The position numbers and the translations under genes were made by a program. From Rhodoferax sp. (lineage in GTDB: Bacteria > Pseudomonadota > Gammaproteobacteria > Burkholderiales > Burkholderiaceae_C): 64,000 nucleotides of DNA. Below the pieces are notes generated by a model that had not been told where the DNA came from, ran no database searches, and was given only the letters and a program-made list of their open reading frames with translations. This document shows, one piece after another, positions 6,750-33,553 of this stretch; position 1 is the first letter of the stretch; each line of letters opens with the position of its first letter. The stretch spans positions 726 to 64,725 of the forward strand of contig NZ_JAABQC010000002.1 of assembly GCF_011391645.1 (NCBI RefSeq), written 5' to 3'.

Positions 6750-8222
6750 ATGGGTCATAAATTAAAAGTTGCTGGCTGGATCTCGGTCGGCGTGGTTGCC
6801 GGCGCGTTGACCACCGTGTCCTTGCAAACAGTGGCGCGGGGGGCGCTGGCGCCGCTGCCGCTTGAAGAACTGCAACAACTGGCGGCCGTTTTTGGCATGG
6901 TCAAGACCAATTACGTCGAGCCGGTGGACGAAAAAAAGCTGATCACCGATGCCATTGCCGGCATGGTGGCGGGGCTGGACCCGCACTCGGTCTACCTGGA
7001 CCAGAAAGCACTGAAAGACTTCAATGAAGGCACCACCGGCAAGTTTGTCGGTGTGGGTATTGAAATATCGCAGGAAGACGGACTCATCAAGGTGGTCTCC
7101 CCGATCGAAGACTCTCCGGCTGATCGTGCCGGACTCAAGCCCAACGACCTGATCGTCAAGATTGACGACACGCCGGTGAAAGGCATGACGCTCAATGAGG
7201 GCGTCAAACGCATGCGCGGTGAGCCCAACACCAAGGTTGTGTTGAGCGTCTTCCGCAAGGATGAAAGCCGCACCTTTCCGGTGACCATCACGCGCGAAGA
7301 AATCAAGACCCAAAGCGTCAAGGCCAAGCTGATCGAGCCCGGCTACGCCTGGGTGCGCATCAGCCAGTTCCAGGAACGCACAGTGGCTGATTTTGCACGC
7401 AAGGTGGAAGATATTTACAAGCAGGAGCCTCAACTCAAGGGCCTGGTGCTTGATTTGCGCAATGACCCCGGTGGCTACCTGGATGCGGCGGTCGCCATTT
7501 CGGCGGCATTTCTGCCCGAAAACGTGACCGTCGTGTCGGCCAACGGCCAGCTCGCGGACAGCAAATTCATCTACAAGGCCTCCCCCCGCTATTACCAGCG
7601 GCGCGGTGGCCCGGATCCCCTGAAGCGGCTGGAGGAAGCCACTCGGGGCGCCTTGAAGACTGTCCCCCTGGTGGTATTGGTCAACGAGGGCTCGGCCTCG
7701 GCCAGCGAGATTGTGGCAGGCGCCCTGCAGGACCACCAGCGCGCCAAGTTGCTGGGCAACCAGACCTTTGGCAAAGGCTCGGTGCAGACCGCGGTCTGCC
7801 TGGATTCGTCCTTCCGCATGGACAACTGCCCCACCGCCGCCCTCAAGCTCACCACCAGCCGCTACTACACACCGAGCGGCAAGTCGATTCAGGCCAGAGG
7901 CATCGTGCCCGACGTGATGGTGGACGAGTCAGCGGACGGCAACCTGTTTGCCGCGCTTCGCACACGCGAGGCCGACCTGGAAAAACACCTGGGCAGCGGC
8001 CAGGGCGCTGAAATCAAGGACACCGAACGTGACAAAGCGCGTGAAGAAGCCCGCATCAAACTGGAAGAAGAAATGAAAAAGCCGGCGTCTGAGCGCCGTT
8101 TGCCAGAATTGGGCTCGGCCAAGGACTTCCCCTTGAACCAGGCATTGAACCAACTCAAGGGCCTGCCAGTGGTGGTCAGCAAAACCCTGGTCGAGCGTCA
8201 GGAAGAGAAAAAAGAAAACTAG
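6750..8222 (+). CDS. ctpA: S41 family carboxy-terminal processing protease
   Basis: PDZ domain (GVGIEI), LDLRNDPGG, SASASEIV (catalytic Ser) and TFGKGSVQ (catalytic Lys). Confidence 0.9.
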   Translation: MGHKLKVAGWISVGVVAGALTTVSLQTVARGALAPLPLEELQQLAAVFGMVKTNYVEPVDEKKLITDAIAGMVAGLDPHSVYLDQKALKDFNEGTTGKFVGVGIEISQEDGLIKVVSPIEDSPADRAGLKPNDLIVKIDDTPVKGMTLNEGVKRMRGEPNTKVVLSVFRKDESRTFPVTITREEIKTQSVKAKLIEPGYAWVRISQFQERTVADFARKVEDIYKQEPQLKGLVLDLRNDPGGYLDAAVAISAAFLPENVTVVSANGQLADSKFIYKASPRYYQRRGGPDPLKRLEEATRGALKTVPLVVLVNEGSASASEIVAGALQDHQRAKLLGNQTFGKGSVQTAVCLDSSFRMDNCPTAALKLTTSRYYTPSGKSIQARGIVPDVMVDESADGNLFAALRTREADLEKHLGSGQGAEIKDTERDKAREEARIKLEEEMKKPASERRLPELGSAKDFPLNQALNQLKGLPVVVSKTLVERQEEKKEN

Positions 8223-25507: not shown

Positions 25508-27340
25508 ATGACCAACTCACTTATATCTATCGTGGCTATTTCCCCAATTCAAGATTACCTTCAAACCTTGATCGCCCGTTTCAGCGGGTTGAGCGAGGGT
25601 GAGGTGGCTGATTACATTCCCGAACTCAAGCTGGCAAACCCCGACTGGTTCGGGATTTGTATCGCCACGCAAGACGGTCATATCTACGAAGTGGGCGACA
25701 GCCAGCAGCACTTCACCATTCAATCAGTCTCCAAACCCCTGACTTACGGGCGGGCACTGGAGCAGCATGGCGAAGCAGCCGTGCTTAAAAAAATTGGCAT
25801 CGAACCTTCGGGCGATGCTTTTAATGCCATCAGCCTTCATCCGACAAGCGGCACACCGCTGAATCCCTTGATCAACGCAGGCGCCATTGCCGCTTGCAGC
25901 CTGATTCCCGGTGACAGCATGCAGGAAAAATCAGCCGTCATTCTGGAGACCTTTTCCCGCTACGCCGGCCGTGCGCTTGACATCGACCACACGGTCTATC
26001 AGTCAGAAAGCGACACCGGCCACCGCAACCGCGCCATCGGCTGGATGCTGCGCAACTTCTCCGTGATCGAATGCGACCCCACGGCAACGTTGGAAGCGTA
26101 TTTTCAGCAATGCGCCATACGTGTCACCTGCCGTGATCTGGCCATCATGGGCGCAACGCTTGCCAATGGGGGCCTCAACCCGATCACCGGCAAGCGGGCG
26201 ATCCCTGAAAAATATGTTGCCAATGTGCTTTCGGTGATGGCCACCTGCGGCATGTACGATGCTTCGGGAGAATGGCTTTACGACACCGGCATGCCAGCCA
26301 AGAGCGGTGTGGGCGGTGGCATCATGGCCGTGCTGCCGGGTCGACTGGGGATTGCCGTGTTTTCACCCAGGCTCGATCAGCAAGGCAACAGTGTTCGCGG
26401 ACTTGCCACGTGCCAGGCTTTGGCTGACGATCTGGAACTGCACATGTTTGGTGCATCGCAGCCGGCCATTCCCGCCATTCGCAGAGCCACCTCGCGCAAA
26501 TCCGTCAAGTCCAACCTGCGCCGCACCCAGGCGGCCAATGACTACCTCTTGCGTGTTGGTAAGAAGCTGCGCGTGTACCAACTGCATGGCGCACTGACTT
26601 TTGCCTCCATTGAGCCAGTTGCCCGAACCATGGCAGACGAATCTGCCCAGACTGAGGTTTTTATCGTGAACCTCAGACTGGTCCATCGCATTGACCGCGC
26701 CAGCGTGAATATTCTGGCTGAGCTGCGCAGAGATTTGATCGGTACTGGCAAGTTGTTGTTTTTTACCGAATCAGGAAACTTCTGGCAACCATTAATAGAC
26801 GCTGGCGTTGATCGGGAGGCCTTCTTTGCCGACGACGACTTTGCGTTGGAGTGTGGCGAGAACCATTTGCTTGGCGACCGCTTTCCGAACCTGGCCTGGG
26901 GCAGCGAGACCCCGTTGGAAAAATGCGACCTCTTGCTTGAGCTCAACCCGGATGAACTGGCCTTGATGGATCGGCTTTTGTTTTATCGAAATTATCTTAA
27001 AGGGCAAAACATCATCACCGCTGGCCAAGCCTCCAACGAACTGTTTGTTTTGACCAAGGGATCGGCCATGGTCAGCATGGCAACCCAGGACGGCATTGCC
27101 CGCTTTGACGCATTTTCTTCAGGTGCAGCCTTTGGCGAAGTCGCTTTTCTGGACCGGTCTCCGCGCTCGGCGAACGTGACCGCGCTTAGTCCGGTGACGT
27201 GCCGGATACTTACCCGCGAAGCGTTTGACCAGCTTGACACACTAGCGCCAGCCATCAAGATCCACTTGCTGAGCAACCTGGCAGGCAGGTTGACCACCAT
27301 GCTGCGCCATAACGGGCGGGAACTGGCATCTCTCAAGTAG
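25508..27340 (+). CDS. glsA: Glutaminase A fused to STAS and cNMP-binding domains
   Basis: FTIQSVSKP (SxxK), EPSG, NPLINAGAI, YFQQC, CGMYD, PAKSGVGGG; then a STAS-like segment; then FGEVAFLDRSPRSANV (phosphate-binding cassette). Confidence 0.9.
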   Translation: MTNSLISIVAISPIQDYLQTLIARFSGLSEGEVADYIPELKLANPDWFGICIATQDGHIYEVGDSQQHFTIQSVSKPLTYGRALEQHGEAAVLKKIGIEPSGDAFNAISLHPTSGTPLNPLINAGAIAACSLIPGDSMQEKSAVILETFSRYAGRALDIDHTVYQSESDTGHRNRAIGWMLRNFSVIECDPTATLEAYFQQCAIRVTCRDLAIMGATLANGGLNPITGKRAIPEKYVANVLSVMATCGMYDASGEWLYDTGMPAKSGVGGGIMAVLPGRLGIAVFSPRLDQQGNSVRGLATCQALADDLELHMFGASQPAIPAIRRATSRKSVKSNLRRTQAANDYLLRVGKKLRVYQLHGALTFASIEPVARTMADESAQTEVFIVNLRLVHRIDRASVNILAELRRDLIGTGKLLFFTESGNFWQPLIDAGVDREAFFADDDFALECGENHLLGDRFPNLAWGSETPLEKCDLLLELNPDELALMDRLLFYRNYLKGQNIITAGQASNELFVLTKGSAMVSMATQDGIARFDAFSSGAAFGEVAFLDRSPRSANVTALSPVTCRILTREAFDQLDTLAPAIKIHLLSNLAGRLTTMLRHNGRELASLK

Positions 27341-27415
27341 CCAGGTTCGTGTTCAAATACGTCCACTCTTTACAGTGTAAAAACTGTTTTTGTGTAGACC
27401 GAGGAGCACTTAAGC

Positions 27416-28786
27416 GTGGCAATTGCAACAATCAACCGCATCATTATTTTGTTTGATGGTGCATTTCGGTCCTTGGCGGTCGATGTGCCGATGGTGAAAG
27501 TGGAGCAACTGGCCATGCTGATCCAGACTGCCATGAGTGGGAAAAAGCGGGCTTTTCACACCACCAAGCATGTTTTGCATTTGAGCCGGGGGATGAAGCC
27601 GGAACAGGTGCTGGCTGCGCTGTTTCATGATGTGGTGTATTTCCAACTCGATGGCGGCTTGTCGGGACAGACCGCCACGCTGCTTGACGGCATCACACGA
27701 TCAGAAAATGACGCCCTGCTGCTTGGTGAAATCAAGCCCGAAGACAAAGCGGTTGCGCTGTGTGCCGATCTTTTTGGCTTCGTGCCAGGTCAAACCTTGC
27801 CACTGCAAAGGGGAATGAATGAGTTTCTCAGTGCGGCCTTGGCAGCCCGTCTTCTTCAGCACTATCTGAGCGATGCGCAACTGATCGCCGTATTTGCCTG
27901 TATCGAAATGACGATCCCTTTCCGGGCACCGGACGAGAGCGGACGGACAGCCGCCCAGTTGCTTGCACAGCGTGTGTTGGCCTTTTGCCACAAACCAGGG
28001 GGCTTTCCTTCACTTTCGGAACAGGACGCGGCACGATTTGTTCGGACGGTTGTCACGGATGCCGTCGTTTTTGCCAACCGGGATCTTTCCGGATTCACCG
28101 ACCCCAACCCTGGACGGTGCTTGTCAAACACGCTTTTGCTGATTGAGGAGTCAATGCCTCATTATGCGGCGCTGAGTTTCAGTTCGATTCAGGAGTACCG
28201 GGACGCCCTGCTGCGCATGGATGCCTTCTTGAGCAAGCTTAACCCGAAGCTTGTCTGCCAGAGTTACGACAACCTGCCAGATGCAAATACCCGGCTGGAA
28301 ATGGACGCCGCAGTGGCTAAGAACATCGCGTTTTCATGCGATTACCTAGCCGCCATACTGGCCTCGATGGCCGTCGTCGAGGCATTGGCACTGAGCACCG
28401 GGTCTGACTGCCCAATCGGCATGTTTCTCGGCGACAAGTCGCAGTCCTTGAACGAACCAGACCAGATCGAAGAACTTCTGCCGGTACCGCCTGCCGGGCA
28501 GCCGGTCAACGCCGAGTTGCTGCAACTTTTTGGAAATGACCACTTGCTGGATTCGATCAATGACCTGACGGCATCGCCTCTGACGGAATTCGTCTACCGG
28601 TTTCTGGGTCAACCCGGAACCCAGCGTGCGCTTGGGCAGGCCAAACAGATGTTTGACGGGCATTTGTCGGCGCGCGAATTCCTGAAGTCCCTGGATCGCA
28701 ACATGGTCCTCGCCATCGTTCATGCGTGTGCGCAAATTGCCGTGTCCCGGCGGGGCGCGCTCCTGGAACTCGAACAAAATCTATAG
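27416..28786 (+). CDS. Uncharacterised protein with an HD-like metal-binding motif
   Basis: GAGGAG RBS before a GTG start; RAFHTTKH...LAALFHDVVY...ANRDLSGF. The CDS is well supported; the function is inferred. Confidence 0.7.
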   Translation: MAIATINRIIILFDGAFRSLAVDVPMVKVEQLAMLIQTAMSGKKRAFHTTKHVLHLSRGMKPEQVLAALFHDVVYFQLDGGLSGQTATLLDGITRSENDALLLGEIKPEDKAVALCADLFGFVPGQTLPLQRGMNEFLSAALAARLLQHYLSDAQLIAVFACIEMTIPFRAPDESGRTAAQLLAQRVLAFCHKPGGFPSLSEQDAARFVRTVVTDAVVFANRDLSGFTDPNPGRCLSNTLLLIEESMPHYAALSFSSIQEYRDALLRMDAFLSKLNPKLVCQSYDNLPDANTRLEMDAAVAKNIAFSCDYLAAILASMAVVEALALSTGSDCPIGMFLGDKSQSLNEPDQIEELLPVPPAGQPVNAELLQLFGNDHLLDSINDLTASPLTEFVYRFLGQPGTQRALGQAKQMFDGHLSAREFLKSLDRNMVLAIVHACAQIAVSRRGALLELEQNL

Positions 28787-28904: not shown

Positions 28905-29378
28905 ATGACACATAGCATTCGGCAATTTCTAACCGCCAGCGCGATTCTGATGCTGGCTTCGGCTGCAGCCCTGTCCCAAGCCCACGCCGAGGTCGTCGGA
29001 TCCGTCAAGACTGTCACCGGTGAAGCCTGGGTGATCACAGCCCAGCAGCGCGTCAAGGCACAGGTTGGCACTCCCGTGAATTTGGGCAGTCAGCTCAAGA
29101 CCGCCAAGGCATCCAGCATGGGCGTGACGTTCAAAGACAACACGCTGATGTCCTTCGGGCCCGACACCGAAATGACGGTTGACGAGTTTCTTTTTGCCCC
29201 GACCCAGGGGCAGCTCAAATTGGGCACCCGGTTGGACAAGGGCAGCCTGAATTACGTCTCCGGCCTGATCGCCAAGCTCAAGCCCGAAGCGGTTACTGTC
29301 AAGACACCCACCGGCACCATTGGTGTGCGTGGCACCCAGTTCCTGCTCAATGTGGATGAGCCTGCCAAAGTCAACTGA
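28905..29378 (+). CDS. Periplasmic FecR-domain protein (no anti-sigma N-terminus)
   Basis: Sec signal ending AHA; FKDNTLMSFGPDT and VKTPTGTIGVRGTQF motifs. Confidence 0.85.
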   Translation: MTHSIRQFLTASAILMLASAAALSQAHAEVVGSVKTVTGEAWVITAQQRVKAQVGTPVNLGSQLKTAKASSMGVTFKDNTLMSFGPDTEMTVDEFLFAPTQGQLKLGTRLDKGSLNYVSGLIAKLKPEAVTVKTPTGTIGVRGTQFLLNVDEPAKVN

Positions 29379-29414: not shown

Positions 29415-31370
29415 ATGACTACAAAAACGAAATTGACGGCATTGACGCTGGCCCTGCTGGGCTGCTGGGGCGCCCAGGCCCAGGCCATGCCAGAGGCACT
29501 GGTCAAAGCTGCCCGCCAGGCGGTTCTGACCAATCCTGAAGTGCAGGCGCGCTGGAACGGTTTCAAGGCCGCCGGGCAAGAACAGTCGACTGCGCGCGGT
29601 GGCTATTTTCCCCAGCTTGATTTGAGAGCATCGGTGGGCAGTGAAAACCGCACCACCCCCGCCACCGATTACGGCCGCTACGACATCAACGGCGCCCAGC
29701 TCACACTCAACCAGATGCTGTTTGACGGCCTGTTCACACCCAGCGAAGTCAAACGTCTGGGCTATGCCAAGCTCGTTCGTTACTATGAGCTGGCAGAAAT
29801 TTCCGAAACCGCCGCCCTGGAAGCGGTGCGCGCTTATGTTGACGTGGCGCGATTCCAGGAACAGGTGGAAGCCGCCACGCAAAACTATGCCGAGCACAAA
29901 CAATCTGCCCAGTTGGTTGAGGAGCGCAACAAGGGCGGCGTTGGACGTCGCGCCGACGTCGAGCAGGCCAGTGGTCGCCTGGCGCAGGCCGAATCCAGCT
30001 TGCTGGCCGAACTGACCAATCTGCACGACGCCAGCGCGCGCTACCTGCGTGTGGTCGGCGAAAAACCGCCCGGCAAGTTGCCAAGCCTGCCCGAATCACT
30101 CAGTCTGGGCCGCATGCCAGCCAATACCGAAGCACTGTTGCAGCAAGGTTTGTCGGGCAGCCCGACTCTGAATGCAGCGCTTGAAAACACACGCGCCTAC
30201 CAGCAAGCCATTGCCACCCGGCAAGCGGCTTTCATGCCGCGTGTTGATCTGCGTGGCTACGTCAGCCAGGACGAAAATCTCTCGGGGGATTTGGGCACGA
30301 CCGATGTCAAAGGGGTTGAACTGGTTCTCAACTACAACCTTTACCGTGGTGGCGCGGACAGCGCCAGGAAGCGCCAGGCAGAAGACCAGCGGGCCCAGGC
30401 ACGCGACCTGCAGGAGAAAGCCTGCCGCGACGTGCGCCAGACGCTGACCATCGCCTACAGTGACGTGCAAAACCTGAGCGAGCAACAGCGCTACCTGAAT
30501 CAATACCGCCTGGCAACTGAAAAATCGCGCGAAGCCTATCGCCAGCAGTTCGACATCGGTCAACGCACCCTGCTCGATGTGCTGGACAGTCAAAAAGAAT
30601 ACTACGAAGCCAGCCGCTCTTACATCAATGCCCGTCATGGCGAGGTGCTGGCGCAGGCGCGCACGCTGGCCGGCATGGGTCAACTGGTGGCGGCGATGGG
30701 TGTCCAGCGCCCCGATATGCCAAGCGCCGCCGATGCAGGACAGGACCGGGACCACACCGACCCGGCTGATTTATGCCCGCTGGACACCAGCGTGGTGGAC
30801 ACCGTGGATGCCATCAAGGCCAGATTTGTGACCAAGGGCCCAGGCTCCTACGTGGTGCTGATCCCGAGTCCGGACGGCAGTATCGGACGGGTGACGGTGC
30901 AGGGCAAGCAGGGCGAGCAGGTTCTGAACAAGGCCGGACAAGCCGTCTCTCTGGATGGCATCACCCCAGTGCCGATCGACGTGAGCGAGCAAAAAGTGAA
31001 GGCGGATTTTGGCTCGGCGATCGCTGCGCGTCCACCCGTGCCTGAACAGTTTGTGTTTTATTTCAAGTTGGGGAGCACGCAACTGACCAAAGAATCCCAG
31101 GCGCTGCTACCTAGCGTGCTGGAAAAAGTGCGCGCGCGCCAGACCCTGGACATTTGGTTGATCGGCCACACGGACACCACAGGCGACGCCAAACGCAACG
31201 ATGCGCTGGGACTCAAACGGGCGCAGGTGCTGGCCAGGAATTTTGAGAAACTCGGGATCAAGGACCTGAATGTGACTGTCGAGTCCTACGGCGAGCGAAG
31301 CCCCCTGGTGGCTACTCCTGACAACACGCCCGAACAGCGAAACCGCCGCGCCGAAGCAACTTTGCGCTAG
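29415..31370 (+). CDS. TolC-family outer membrane protein fused to a C-terminal OmpA-like peptidoglycan-binding domain
   Basis: TolC-like part: AVLTNPEV, GGYFPQLDL, QMLFDG, QFDIGQRTLLDVLD. OmpA part: IGHTDTTG, LGLKRA, SYGE, NRRAE. Confidence 0.85.
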   Translation: MTTKTKLTALTLALLGCWGAQAQAMPEALVKAARQAVLTNPEVQARWNGFKAAGQEQSTARGGYFPQLDLRASVGSENRTTPATDYGRYDINGAQLTLNQMLFDGLFTPSEVKRLGYAKLVRYYELAEISETAALEAVRAYVDVARFQEQVEAATQNYAEHKQSAQLVEERNKGGVGRRADVEQASGRLAQAESSLLAELTNLHDASARYLRVVGEKPPGKLPSLPESLSLGRMPANTEALLQQGLSGSPTLNAALENTRAYQQAIATRQAAFMPRVDLRGYVSQDENLSGDLGTTDVKGVELVLNYNLYRGGADSARKRQAEDQRAQARDLQEKACRDVRQTLTIAYSDVQNLSEQQRYLNQYRLATEKSREAYRQQFDIGQRTLLDVLDSQKEYYEASRSYINARHGEVLAQARTLAGMGQLVAAMGVQRPDMPSAADAGQDRDHTDPADLCPLDTSVVDTVDAIKARFVTKGPGSYVVLIPSPDGSIGRVTVQGKQGEQVLNKAGQAVSLDGITPVPIDVSEQKVKADFGSAIAARPPVPEQFVFYFKLGSTQLTKESQALLPSVLEKVRARQTLDIWLIGHTDTTGDAKRNDALGLKRAQVLARNFEKLGIKDLNVTVESYGERSPLVATPDNTPEQRNRRAEATLR

Positions 31371-31396: not shown

Positions 31397-33553
31397 CTAC
31401 TTCTCGGTCATCACGATCAGGTTGCCTGTCTGATTTTCTCGCAGCCGCTGCAGGTGCAATTTGACCAGCGGATCCATCGGCCGCTCCAGGGCCAGTTGCT
31501 CAAAGGCGGCGCGCGCCGCCAATGGGTCCTGAGTCAACAAGGCATAGGCTGCAGCATATTGCGGATCATCCGGCGACGCGCCCGGGATCTCCAAACCTTC
31601 GTGGATGGGTTGAAACACCATCAGCGGCTTCGACTTGCCTTTGAGCACCAGTTGACCCACAGGGCGGGTCACCACCCCGGTGCAGCCCGACAAGGTTGCC
31701 TCGGAGACACACACCCGCGTGCCCAGATGCTTGTTGACTGCTTCAAGGCGCGATGCGGTGTTGACCGGGTCTCCGAGCGCACGGTAATCAAAGATGGTTG
31801 AACCACCAAAATTACCGACAATGACTTCACCCGTGTGAATTCCGATGCGGGTATGGCCAAAAGGGATGCCTTTGGCTTGCAAGTCACCTGCATACTTGGT
31901 GGCAAAGCGCTGCATGGCCAACGCGCAGTTCAGCGCCCGCTGCCGGTGATCGGGCTGGTGCACTGGCGCCGAAAACATGATGGCCACCGCGTCGCCGACA
32001 ATCCGGTCCAGCGTGCCGTTGAATTGAAATGCAATGGCGATCATTTCATCCAGATAGGCATTCAGCAGCGCGACCGCGTCCGCTGGATCGATCTTTTCCA
32101 TCAGGCTGGTGAAACCCGCCAGATCGGTAAAGATAAAGCTGCATTCCTGACGTTTGCCGCCAAGTTCAAGTTCTGCCGGATGGTCCACGATGTAGGACAC
32201 CAGATTGGGAGACACATAACGTGAAAAGGCCTGTTTGACAAAGCGCTGGCTTCGTTCGCTGGAAAAATGGTGCATCAAACTTGACAACAGGAAGGCAGCA
32301 AAAATACCCAACGCGGGCGTGACCGGGTCCAGCAGCAACTGGTAATCGGTAAAGGCCACCCAGCCACCCCAGATAATGCCCGCAATCACCCCCAGCGTGA
32401 GTAACGCGGAGGCGACTGCTCCGGTCACCAGCCCCAGAATTGCCAGCGTCATGCTGCCGATGATGATGGTCAATGCCTCAATCGAATTGGCCCAGGCCGG
32501 CCGTTGCAGGAAACTGTCGGTCAGCACCTGCTCCATCATCTGAGCGTGCGCCTCGACCCCCGGCATGACGCCGCCCAGCGGGCTGAAGCGCAAGTCCATC
32601 AGCCCCTGCGCCGAGGTTCCGACCAGCATCAGATTGCCCTGCAACTCGGCATCGGGGATTTCTCCCGCCAAAATTCTCCAGGCCGCAATGGTGCGCTCCT
32701 TGACCGGCCTGGTGTAATACACCCACGATTCGCCTGCGGCGGTAGTGGGCACCGTGAATTGGCCGATCTTCACCTCTGTCATGCCAACGCCCGGGGTTTC
32801 GGAGGTGCGCACCATGTAGTTTTGCGCGCCCTGACCAACCCGCAACACCTCGGCCGCCAGCGAAGGCACCAGGGTGTCGCCCAGGCGCAGCAGCAACGGC
32901 ACACGGCGCACCACGCCGTCAGTGTCCGGAACAAAGGTCATGACACCATTGCCTGCAGCCGCTGCGCTCAGCAGGGGCAAGGACGGCACGGCACTGGCAA
33001 AAGCATGGGCAAAGGGCAGCGCCGGCTCGCCCATCATCACGTAACGGTACTTCTCGTCGGCCAGGGTCGCCCCCCTGGCTCCCTGGCGCTCCAGGGCATA
33101 ACCAAGCACCACGCCGCCGGGCTTCAGGGCAGCGGCAAGCAGCTCATCGTGATCAGGCAGGCTGGCAACGCTGCGCTGCGCTCTGGCAGGCAGGTTCCAA
33201 ATGCCCAGCATGGCTTTGGGCGAGGTGCGGTCCGGCTCGGCAAACAGCACGTCGAAGCCGACAGCCGCCACCTCGGCCTGGCGCAGTCGCTCCACCAGTT
33301 CGGCAATCCGGCTGCGCGGCCAGGGCCATTGGCCGATTCGGGTGAGGCTTTCCTCATCGATATCGATGATCCGCACCGGCGCCGGCTGGTAGACCCGCGG
33401 ACGCGCCTGCTGGTACTGGTCAAAGACCGAATTACGCAGGGTTTGCAATAGCGGCGGGTCGATCAACAGCAGCGCCGCGCCGATGAACACTGCCAGCGTT
33501 GGCACCAGCATGTTCAAGCTCAGGGTAAACCAGCGGCGCAGCTTTTTGATCAT
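31397..33553 (-). CDS. CHASE2-domain membrane-bound class III nucleotide cyclase
   Basis: TM; CHASE2 (IDIDEESL..GQWPWPR, GVEAHAQ); 3 TMs; cyclase domain (FTDLAGFT, GDAV, RIGIHTG, VNTASRLE). Confidence 0.9.
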   Translation of the reverse strand: MIKKLRRWFTLSLNMLVPTLAVFIGAALLLIDPPLLQTLRNSVFDQYQQARPRVYQPAPVRIIDIDEESLTRIGQWPWPRSRIAELVERLRQAEVAAVGFDVLFAEPDRTSPKAMLGIWNLPARAQRSVASLPDHDELLAAALKPGGVVLGYALERQGARGATLADEKYRYVMMGEPALPFAHAFASAVPSLPLLSAAAAGNGVMTFVPDTDGVVRRVPLLLRLGDTLVPSLAAEVLRVGQGAQNYMVRTSETPGVGMTEVKIGQFTVPTTAAGESWVYYTRPVKERTIAAWRILAGEIPDAELQGNLMLVGTSAQGLMDLRFSPLGGVMPGVEAHAQMMEQVLTDSFLQRPAWANSIEALTIIIGSMTLAILGLVTGAVASALLTLGVIAGIIWGGWVAFTDYQLLLDPVTPALGIFAAFLLSSLMHHFSSERSQRFVKQAFSRYVSPNLVSYIVDHPAELELGGKRQECSFIFTDLAGFTSLMEKIDPADAVALLNAYLDEMIAIAFQFNGTLDRIVGDAVAIMFSAPVHQPDHRQRALNCALAMQRFATKYAGDLQAKGIPFGHTRIGIHTGEVIVGNFGGSTIFDYRALGDPVNTASRLEAVNKHLGTRVCVSEATLSGCTGVVTRPVGQLVLKGKSKPLMVFQPIHEGLEIPGASPDDPQYAAAYALLTQDPLAARAAFEQLALERPMDPLVKLHLQRLRENQTGNLIVMTEK

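Follow-up and report, generated by a model that had tools for sequence, protein, structure and literature searches.

Organization of the locus

The window analyzed herein, that is, the whole stretch of 64,000 nucleotides from Rhodoferax sp. (RefSeq assembly GCF_011391645.1, contig NZ_JAABQC010000002.1, positions 726 to 64,725 of the forward strand), contains an open reading frame (ORF) for a 456-aa protein that belongs to a family without annotation and that we refer to as phosphodiesterase (PDE)-like. As summarized in Table 1, the gene lies between glsA, encoding a glutaminase fusion, and a module encoding a FecR-domain protein, an outer-membrane protein and a CHASE2 cyclase. Invariant residues, a resemblance of the predicted fold to class I PDEs, and a conserved synteny with genes related to cyclic nucleoside monophosphates (cNMPs) were all observed directly for this family. 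The reading that we favor, with about as much credence as doubt, is that the protein represents a new and very divergent PDE-like branch of the HD/PDEase superfamily in bacteria, which would hydrolyze the cyclic nucleotide produced by the neighboring cyclase.

Table 1. Positions of the PDE-like gene, its conserved elements and the neighboring genes in the window.
Feature	Position	Strand	Basis
PDE-like HD-superfamily coding sequence (CDS), 456 aa, member of an unannotated family	27416..28786	+	ORF, homologues, AlphaFold2 and Foldseek
Ribosome-binding site GAGGAG, 9 nt 5' of the GTG	27401..27406	+	direct sequence reading
R45-x2-H48-x3-H52 (RAFHTTKH), proposed counterpart of class I PDE YHNxxH	27548..27571	+	family conservation
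LAALFH71D72VVY75, HD dyad followed by Tyr in place of the class I PDE His	27611..27640	+	family conservation
D79, invariant	27650..27652	+	106/106
N135-E136, start of helix 134-147, candidate second-shell or second-metal ligand (cf. PDE4D E230)	27818..27823	+	conservation, model
ANRD223LSGF (A220-F227), distal Asp of the H...HD...D pattern	28073..28096	+	family conservation
E245, invariant	28148..28150	+	106/106
Glutaminase A + STAS + C-terminal cNMP-binding fusion (glsA)	25508..27340	+	Pfam Glutaminase 4e-120, cNMP_binding 4e-15, STAS weak; NCBIfam glutaminase
FecR-domain protein, part of the conserved FecR/OmpA/CHASE2-cyclase module	28905..29378	+	Pfam FecR 1.7e-11
OEP (TolC-like) + OmpA-domain outer-membrane protein	29415..31370	+	Pfam OEP 2e-46, OmpA 4e-15
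CHASE2 sensor-class III nucleotidyl cyclase fusion, convergent	31397..33553	-	Pfam CHASE2 3e-61, Guanylate_cyc 1e-18

The CDS begins with a GTG codon. This start is supported by the homologues, which begin at the identical alignment column and share conserved residues within the first 20 positions (I6, R8, A16, F17 and L20). The position of the ORF 75 bp downstream of the glsA stop on the same strand and its strong ribosome-binding site, both described in the original prediction, were verified in the sequence. A scan of the gap between the two genes found neither a terminator-like nor a promoter-like site, and co-transcription of the PDE-like gene with glsA is thus plausible.

Conserved residues of the PDE-like family

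Residue conservation was scored over 106 family representatives sharing 30-53% identity. All of them keep R45, H48, H71, D72, D79, F120, E136, F227, E245 and N303, while H52 and D223 are each retained in 105, N135 and N221 each in 104, and Y75 in 103; the string R..H...H was found in 258 of the 260 full-length members. The H...HD...D pattern of HD phosphohydrolases is formed by H48/H52, H71-D72 and D223. The original prediction had read the strings RAFHTTKH, LAALFHDVVY and ANRDLSGF as an HD-type metal site, and this reading was borne out, as all three are present and invariant or nearly so in the 106 relatives. The pattern by itself carries little weight; its family-wide invariance goes beyond chance and, judging from the aligned sequences, is that of a catalytic metal site. 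In a scan of the host genome comprising 13,222 six-frame ORFs, the expression R.[YFW]H...H(8-45)[FWYL]HD..[YF] matched the PDE-like gene only, and neither a paralogue nor a small HD protein bearing the R.YH...H/FHD..Y motif was found there.

The succession of these residues parallels that in the class I enzyme PDE4D, where H160, H164, H200-D201, E230 and D318 occur in the same order as H48-x3-H52, H71-D72, E136 and D223 of the family, and the PDE4D strings YHNNIHA and LAAIFASAIHDV resemble YHTxxHV and LAALFHDV. A residue-by-residue equivalence can be proposed on this basis, in which H48 and H52 would be the general-acid His and the first metal His corresponding to PDE4D H160 and H164, and N135/E136 may serve as a second-shell or second-metal ligand. 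The two differ, however, in that the His following the HD dyad of class I PDEs (HD[LIVMFY]xHx[AG]xx[NQ]) is replaced by Tyr in the family, and in that 19 residues separate the first His motif from HD in the family versus 36 in class I PDEs. The H...HD...D residues and the helical fold are also common to the generic HD domain (PF01966, the superfamily of Aravind and Koonin), which is, however, much smaller than the family protein, and the family has none of the extra His motifs that occur in many HD enzymes.

The replacement of the canonical His by Tyr and the missing extra His ligands would also suit a non-catalytic, PDE-like pseudo-enzyme, namely a regulator or scaffold that binds a metal or nucleotide and either senses cNMP or modulates the cyclase, as would the approximately 200 C-terminal residues to which no role is assigned. 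Pseudo-enzymes usually lose the residues of the catalytic metal site. Since H48, H52, H71, D72, D79, E136, D223 and E245 are nearly completely invariant down to 30% identity, we regard such a function as quite improbable.

Predicted fold

For the window protein, AlphaFold2 gave a confident model (pLDDT 87.3, pTM 0.86) that was almost entirely helical, with a small hairpin at residues 94-103. In a Foldseek search with this model against the PDB, only class I PDE catalytic domains exceeded a probability of 0.3, among them PDE6C, RhoPDE and many PDE10A entries, with probabilities up to 0.85 over approximately 330-360 aligned columns. A search of a viral structure library with the same model returned noise only (probability ≤ 0.13). 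A replicate model was built for a member from Microscillaceae that is 35% identical to the window protein (pLDDT 91.1, pTM 0.90). All of its top 50 PDB matches were class I PDE domains (PDE4, 5, 9, 10, 7, 1, 8 and RhoPDE), with Foldseek probabilities of 0.95-1.00, E-values of 2.8e-3 to 9e-2 and target template modeling (TM) scores up to 0.49, and no other HD enzyme appeared among these 50. The alignments of approximately 340-370 columns spanned essentially the whole PDE domains. Class I PDE domains were thus the only credible PDB neighbors of both models, as the original prediction of a PDE would lead one to expect from such a comparison.

Like the family models, class I PDEs (PF00233, e.g., PDE4D, PDE5A, PDE9A, PDE10A and Salpingoeca RhoPDE) possess an all-alpha domain of more than 300 residues. 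The class I catalytic domain is made up of approximately 16 helices arranged as three subdomains, and it has an invariant Gln that recognizes the purine as well as a hydrophobic clamp. The family differs from them in the inserted beta-hairpin at residues 94-103 and in an extra C-terminal helical region of approximately 120 residues.

Distribution and annotation status of the family

A word-indexed search retrieved at least 929 relatives, nearly all of 446-470 aa, none of which had a precomputed Pfam domain and every one of which was named "hypothetical" in its source. By HMMER against 1.84 billion cluster representatives, 840 clusters (50% identity) were matched at E ≤ 1e-3 and 370 at E ≤ 1e-30, and 432 stretches were matched in a collection of 185,579 bacterial and archaeal species, each represented by a single genome, which puts the family in 432 species genomes. 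The main carriers are Rhodoferax, other Burkholderiales and Iodobacter, and deeper branches occur in Bacteroidota (Microscillaceae), Chloroflexota (Anaerolineales), Planctomycetota (Ca. Uabimicrobium) and Binatota. Cultured carriers include Iodobacter fluviatilis, I. violaceini, I. arcticus, Janthinobacterium sp. B9-8 and Rhodoferax lacus, whose proteins are labeled "hypothetical" or "uncharacterized" in RefSeq and UniProt; the I. fluviatilis orthologue is WP_115228106. Within the bacterial family of the host the gene is patchy, being found in 3 of 151 genera.

The 456-aa protein had no match in Pfam, NCBIfam, PADLOC or PHROGs, the PDB yielded only noise when searched by sequence, whether with the single protein or with two family profiles, and a Pfam scan of the 106 representatives at E ≤ 10 revealed no consistent family. 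No description of the family was found in the literature, among Pfam and NCBIfam models or in source annotation. Class I PDEs are usually regarded as eukaryotic enzymes, whereas the PDE-like family described here is bacterial, and a literature search found no paper on a bacterial class I PDE family.

Members are almost all single-domain proteins of approximately 450 aa. The original prediction had pointed to a resemblance to cyanobacterial proteins carrying a C-terminal cNMP-binding domain, which was not supported by the domain-architecture survey: ten longer members were inspected for fusions and none had a cNMP_binding domain, and the sole record named "Synechococcus" is a contig of a metagenome-assembled genome without the C-terminal cNMP-binding architecture. 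This fusion architecture was rejected on the basis of the ten members surveyed. Among the longer members, P0194 carries C-terminal RTX calcium-binding repeats, and P0122, P0201, P0211, P0221, P0236 and P0262 have N-terminal extensions of 120-200 residues without a Pfam match, which may be real domains or over-called starts.

Genomic context across related loci

Synteny was assessed in 80 related loci (given below by L numbers), in which a gene was taken as near when it lay within 8 kb of the family gene. A class III cyclase was near in 36 loci and was the direct neighbor in 17, and 10 of these 17 direct neighbors were co-directional with gaps of 7-43 bp, that is, in an operon-like arrangement; in Iodobacter-type loci the family gene follows the cyclase by 12-13 bp. 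The operon-like coupling in these 10 loci also fits a regulatory partner of the cyclase, as the pseudo-enzyme described above would be. A gene with a cNMP-binding domain was near in 21 loci and directly adjacent in 17. When only the 42 loci with at least 5 kb on each side were considered, 22 had a cyclase, 16 a cNMP-binding gene and 26 (62%) either of them. Since the host genome contains only two class III cyclases and approximately 13 cNMP-binding ORFs, adjacency by chance would be expected at the percent level.

The pairing of the family gene with a cyclase or cNMP-binding gene persists through at least four gene orders. In one of them, FecR, OmpA and a convergent cyclase come after the family gene. 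In another, a FecR-OmpA-cyclase set, to which a cNMP-binding gene is sometimes added, is divergent from the family gene. In two further orders the family gene and the cyclase are immediate neighbors, the cyclase coming first in one and the family gene in the other. In the maximum-likelihood tree, the cNMP link was present in 44 rows of the proteobacterial clade and absent from 11, requiring approximately 7-9 changes of state that are mostly consistent with losses. The cNMP-binding partners are of three kinds, i.e., the glutaminase fusion, a stand-alone protein of 200-228 aa, and an ABC exporter fusion. Only a Rhodoferax subclade (L037-L039, L048, L051 and L052) has the glsA fusion 5' of the family gene; family-wide, the partners seen in the proteobacterial clade are not glsA but the CHASE2 cyclase cluster and the small cNMP-binding proteins. 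The loci without a cNMP link were checked for another shared context, and only unrelated housekeeping neighbors were found, such as aldehyde dehydrogenase/MaoC, RpoD, phosphofructokinase, pyruvate:ferredoxin oxidoreductase, molybdopterin oxidoreductase, ScdA and HemN/PAS.

The CHASE2 cyclase of the window is the likely source of cNMP at this locus. In 28 of the 33 family-linked CHASE2 cyclases examined (the window cyclase and those of loci L002-L072), the string GTLDR[IF]VGD was found, while the Asp of the second specificity position is retained (FDYRALGD). At the first of these positions, class III adenylate cyclases have a Lys that specifies ATP, whereas the linked cyclases have Arg, and their sequences suggest that the nucleotide product may not be the standard one. 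As for enzymes that would degrade such a product, the host genome contained no CpdA equivalog (best score 21.9 bits versus a cut-off of 225), so that the role of degrading cAMP or cGMP appears vacant, and a PF00233 scan at E ≤ 1 found no PDEase_I in it.

Regarding the other neighbors, the FecR-domain gene is syntenic in about half of the related loci. The OEP-OmpA fusion of the window comprises 651 aa, and many other loci encode only an OmpA-type protein of approximately 200 aa that matches residues 475-651. The domain composition of the glsA product suggests a cNMP-gated glutaminase, and the fusion also occurs at 41% identity in a sister CHASE2 cluster (L101) that has a GAF-HD-GYP protein instead of the PDE-like family. 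The stand-alone cNMP-binding protein lies divergently beside the family gene in L009, L016, L021, L022, L024, L028, L029, L068 and L069 (approximately 7290-7970, minus strand), usually between the family gene and the cyclase; no helix-turn-helix was found by Pfam in that of L016, and L021 and L022 have this neighbor despite having no nearby cyclase. An ABC exporter (ABC_membrane + ABC_tran) with a C-terminal cNMP-binding domain adjoins the family gene at L014:9553-11823 and L025:198-2441. A MacB/FtsX-type permease pair was found 5' of the family gene in L010, L015, L019, L023 and L042, preceded immediately by an ABC ATPase gene in L015, L023 and L042. The pair is separated from the family gene by a PhoD-like phosphatase in L019 and L023, and it abuts the FecR/OmpA/cyclase cluster in L010.

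Evidence weighing against the assignment and alternative functions

A number of results weigh against a cNMP phosphodiesterase. At the sequence level, PF00233 (PDEase_I) was matched neither by the protein nor, at E ≤ 10, by the 106 representatives, and PF01966 (HD) matched only 2 of the latter with an E-value of 0.13. The class I signature PROSITE PS00126, H-D-[LIVMFY]-x-H-x-[AG]-x2-[NQ]-x-[LIVMFY], matched none of the 260 full-length members, in which the corresponding string reads HDVVY.Q.D, while the PDE4D control was matched; the original prediction was thus right in noting that the signature is missing after HD. The alignment of the family profile with PDE4D by hhalign, a weak test with a single-sequence template, gave a probability of 0.6% and left the motifs unaligned (the PDE4D catalytic-domain sequence used was 100% identical to 2qyn_A). 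Structurally, no Foldseek match reached E ≤ 1e-3, TM scores stayed below 0.5 and the root-mean-square deviation was 8-10 Å, so that the fold likeness, as far as the two models tell, is reproducible and specific to class I PDEs, yet remote. Assigning the protein to the class I PDEs is not warranted, although it may function as they do. The candidacy as a cNMP phosphodiesterase put forward in the original prediction was supported by the class I PDE neighbors of both models and by the synteny with cyclase and cNMP-binding genes, but not by the sequence-level class I tests.

The context argument has limits of its own. The synteny with cNMP genes is confined to the proteobacterial clade, and no cNMP gene lay within 8 kb in the five assessable deep-branch loci (Bacteroidota, Chloroflexota and Planctomycetota). 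Six distant members were looked up; the contigs of four were too short for their context to be judged, and the other two, both metagenomic, lie amid housekeeping genes (Obg/NadD/PBP2/MreBCD and S1/Cmk, respectively). In the bacterial family of the host, the 3 genera with the PDE-like gene compare with 75 of the 151 that have CHASE2 cyclases; two genomes bearing the gene have no close CHASE2 cyclase, and of the 13 genomes with a close CHASE2 cyclase (at least 44% identity) only that of the window carries the PDE-like family. Class III cyclases were present in all 19 family-bearing genomes tested, but they occur in 139 of the 151 genomes (92%) of this bacterial family regardless, and such a background renders co-occurrence at the genome level uninformative. 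Furthermore, two sister clusters without the PDE-like family have a dCache-GAF-HD-GYP protein of 1002 aa (L101:4192-7197) and a REC-GAF protein truncated where its contig ends (L099:10174-11715), respectively, adjoining the CHASE2 cyclase, and the slot may therefore suit an output enzyme rather than a terminator of the cNMP signal.

These sister clusters, together with the missing class I signature and the distant members that have no cNMP context, speak for an HD-superfamily hydrolase of another nucleotide, such as cyclic di-GMP or another cyclic dinucleotide, a 2',3'-cNMP, (p)ppGpp, or an NTP or dNTP, which would serve the CHASE2-cyclase pathway as an output or side branch instead of removing the cyclase product. 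The protein, however, has no GAF, cNMP-binding or other sensor domain through which cNMP could control it. The top Foldseek matches are filled by class I cNMP PDEs, with structures of the HD-GYP, PgpH, SAMHD1 and YfbR types missing from among them. The HHExxDGxGYP motif of HD-GYP proteins is absent, neither the protein nor the 106 representatives gave a match to HD_5 (PF13487), and an NCBIfam scan of the protein matched no HD-type profile. Taken together, we consider a hydrolase of another nucleotide to be unlikely, though worth keeping in mind. As for the CpdA class III enzymes (NF008359, metallophosphoesterase), the protein likewise had no NCBIfam or Pfam match.

The patchy spread over 3 of 151 genera makes horizontal transfer of the block plausible, and the betaproteobacterial synteny could then reflect hitch-hiking in a mobile cluster, with the protein having a function unrelated to cyclic nucleotides, e.g., that of a housekeeping phosphohydrolase, and the PDE likeness being that of a generic all-alpha HD fold. 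The Foldseek E-values, which are formally non-significant, and the distant members beside Obg/NadD, MreBCD/PBP2 and S1/Cmk are in line with this explanation. The pairing, however, outlasts at least four rearrangements and involves two kinds of partner, i.e., a cyclase or a cNMP-binding protein; L021, L022, L014 and L025 keep a cNMP-binding neighbor without a cyclase, and no other functional theme recurs among the neighbors. An unrelated function can therefore be given little credence.

Proposed function and implications

CHASE2 adenylate cyclases of Campylobacterota have been found clustered with a cAMP phosphodiesterase, a FecR-domain protein and a TPR protein (PMC9239204), so that a PDE slot in clusters of this sort has a precedent. 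In those clusters, as in the ones with GAF-HD-GYP proteins, a phosphodiesterase-type gene stands beside a FecR-domain gene, an envelope partner and a CHASE2 cyclase module, as it does here. The accompanying enzyme of the window module is, however, unannotated and PDE-like, and it has no GAF or other sensor domain, unlike the GAF-HD-GYP partners. Compared with enzymes of the CpdA/Rv0805 type, which have the metallophosphoesterase fold, the role proposed here, i.e., the breakdown of cAMP or cGMP in bacteria, is alike, whereas fold and motifs are unrelated.

Under the favored reading of a divergent PDE-like enzyme, the protein would be a cytoplasmic, metal-dependent 3',5'-cyclic-nucleotide phosphodiesterase, whose substrate, metals and catalytic roles we infer from analogy with class I PDEs. 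A first metal ion would be held by H52, H71, D72 and D223, and a second one by D72 and, via waters, by N135/E136. A metal-bridged hydroxide would then attack the cyclic phosphate, with H48 protonating the leaving O3'. The enzyme would in this way clear the cNMP made by the envelope-sensing CHASE2 cyclase, which would work with its FecR and OEP/OmpA partners, and the removal of cNMP would reset its receptors, among them the cNMP-binding domain of the glutaminase encoded upstream.

Bacterial cNMP phosphodiesterases of other kinds are those of class II, class III/CpdA and the HD-GYP type. A bolder proposal, toward which we are more doubtful than confident, is that the class I PDE lineage has a prokaryotic branch in this family, which would add a fourth kind to the bacterial cNMP PDEs and whose members would be dedicated terminators for CHASE2 cyclases, and that the pair may handle a nucleotide other than cAMP. 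The Arg in place of the ATP-specifying Lys in the linked cyclases is the reason for suggesting that the pair may both make and destroy such a nucleotide.

Should the assignment prove true, it would add an enzyme class to bacterial cyclic-nucleotide signaling. It would also fill a gap in a group that is rich in class III cyclases (92% of the sampled genomes of the bacterial family) while the host genome has no recognizable cAMP phosphodiesterase. Class I PDEs are major drug targets, and a bacterial relative would bear on the origin of these enzymes.

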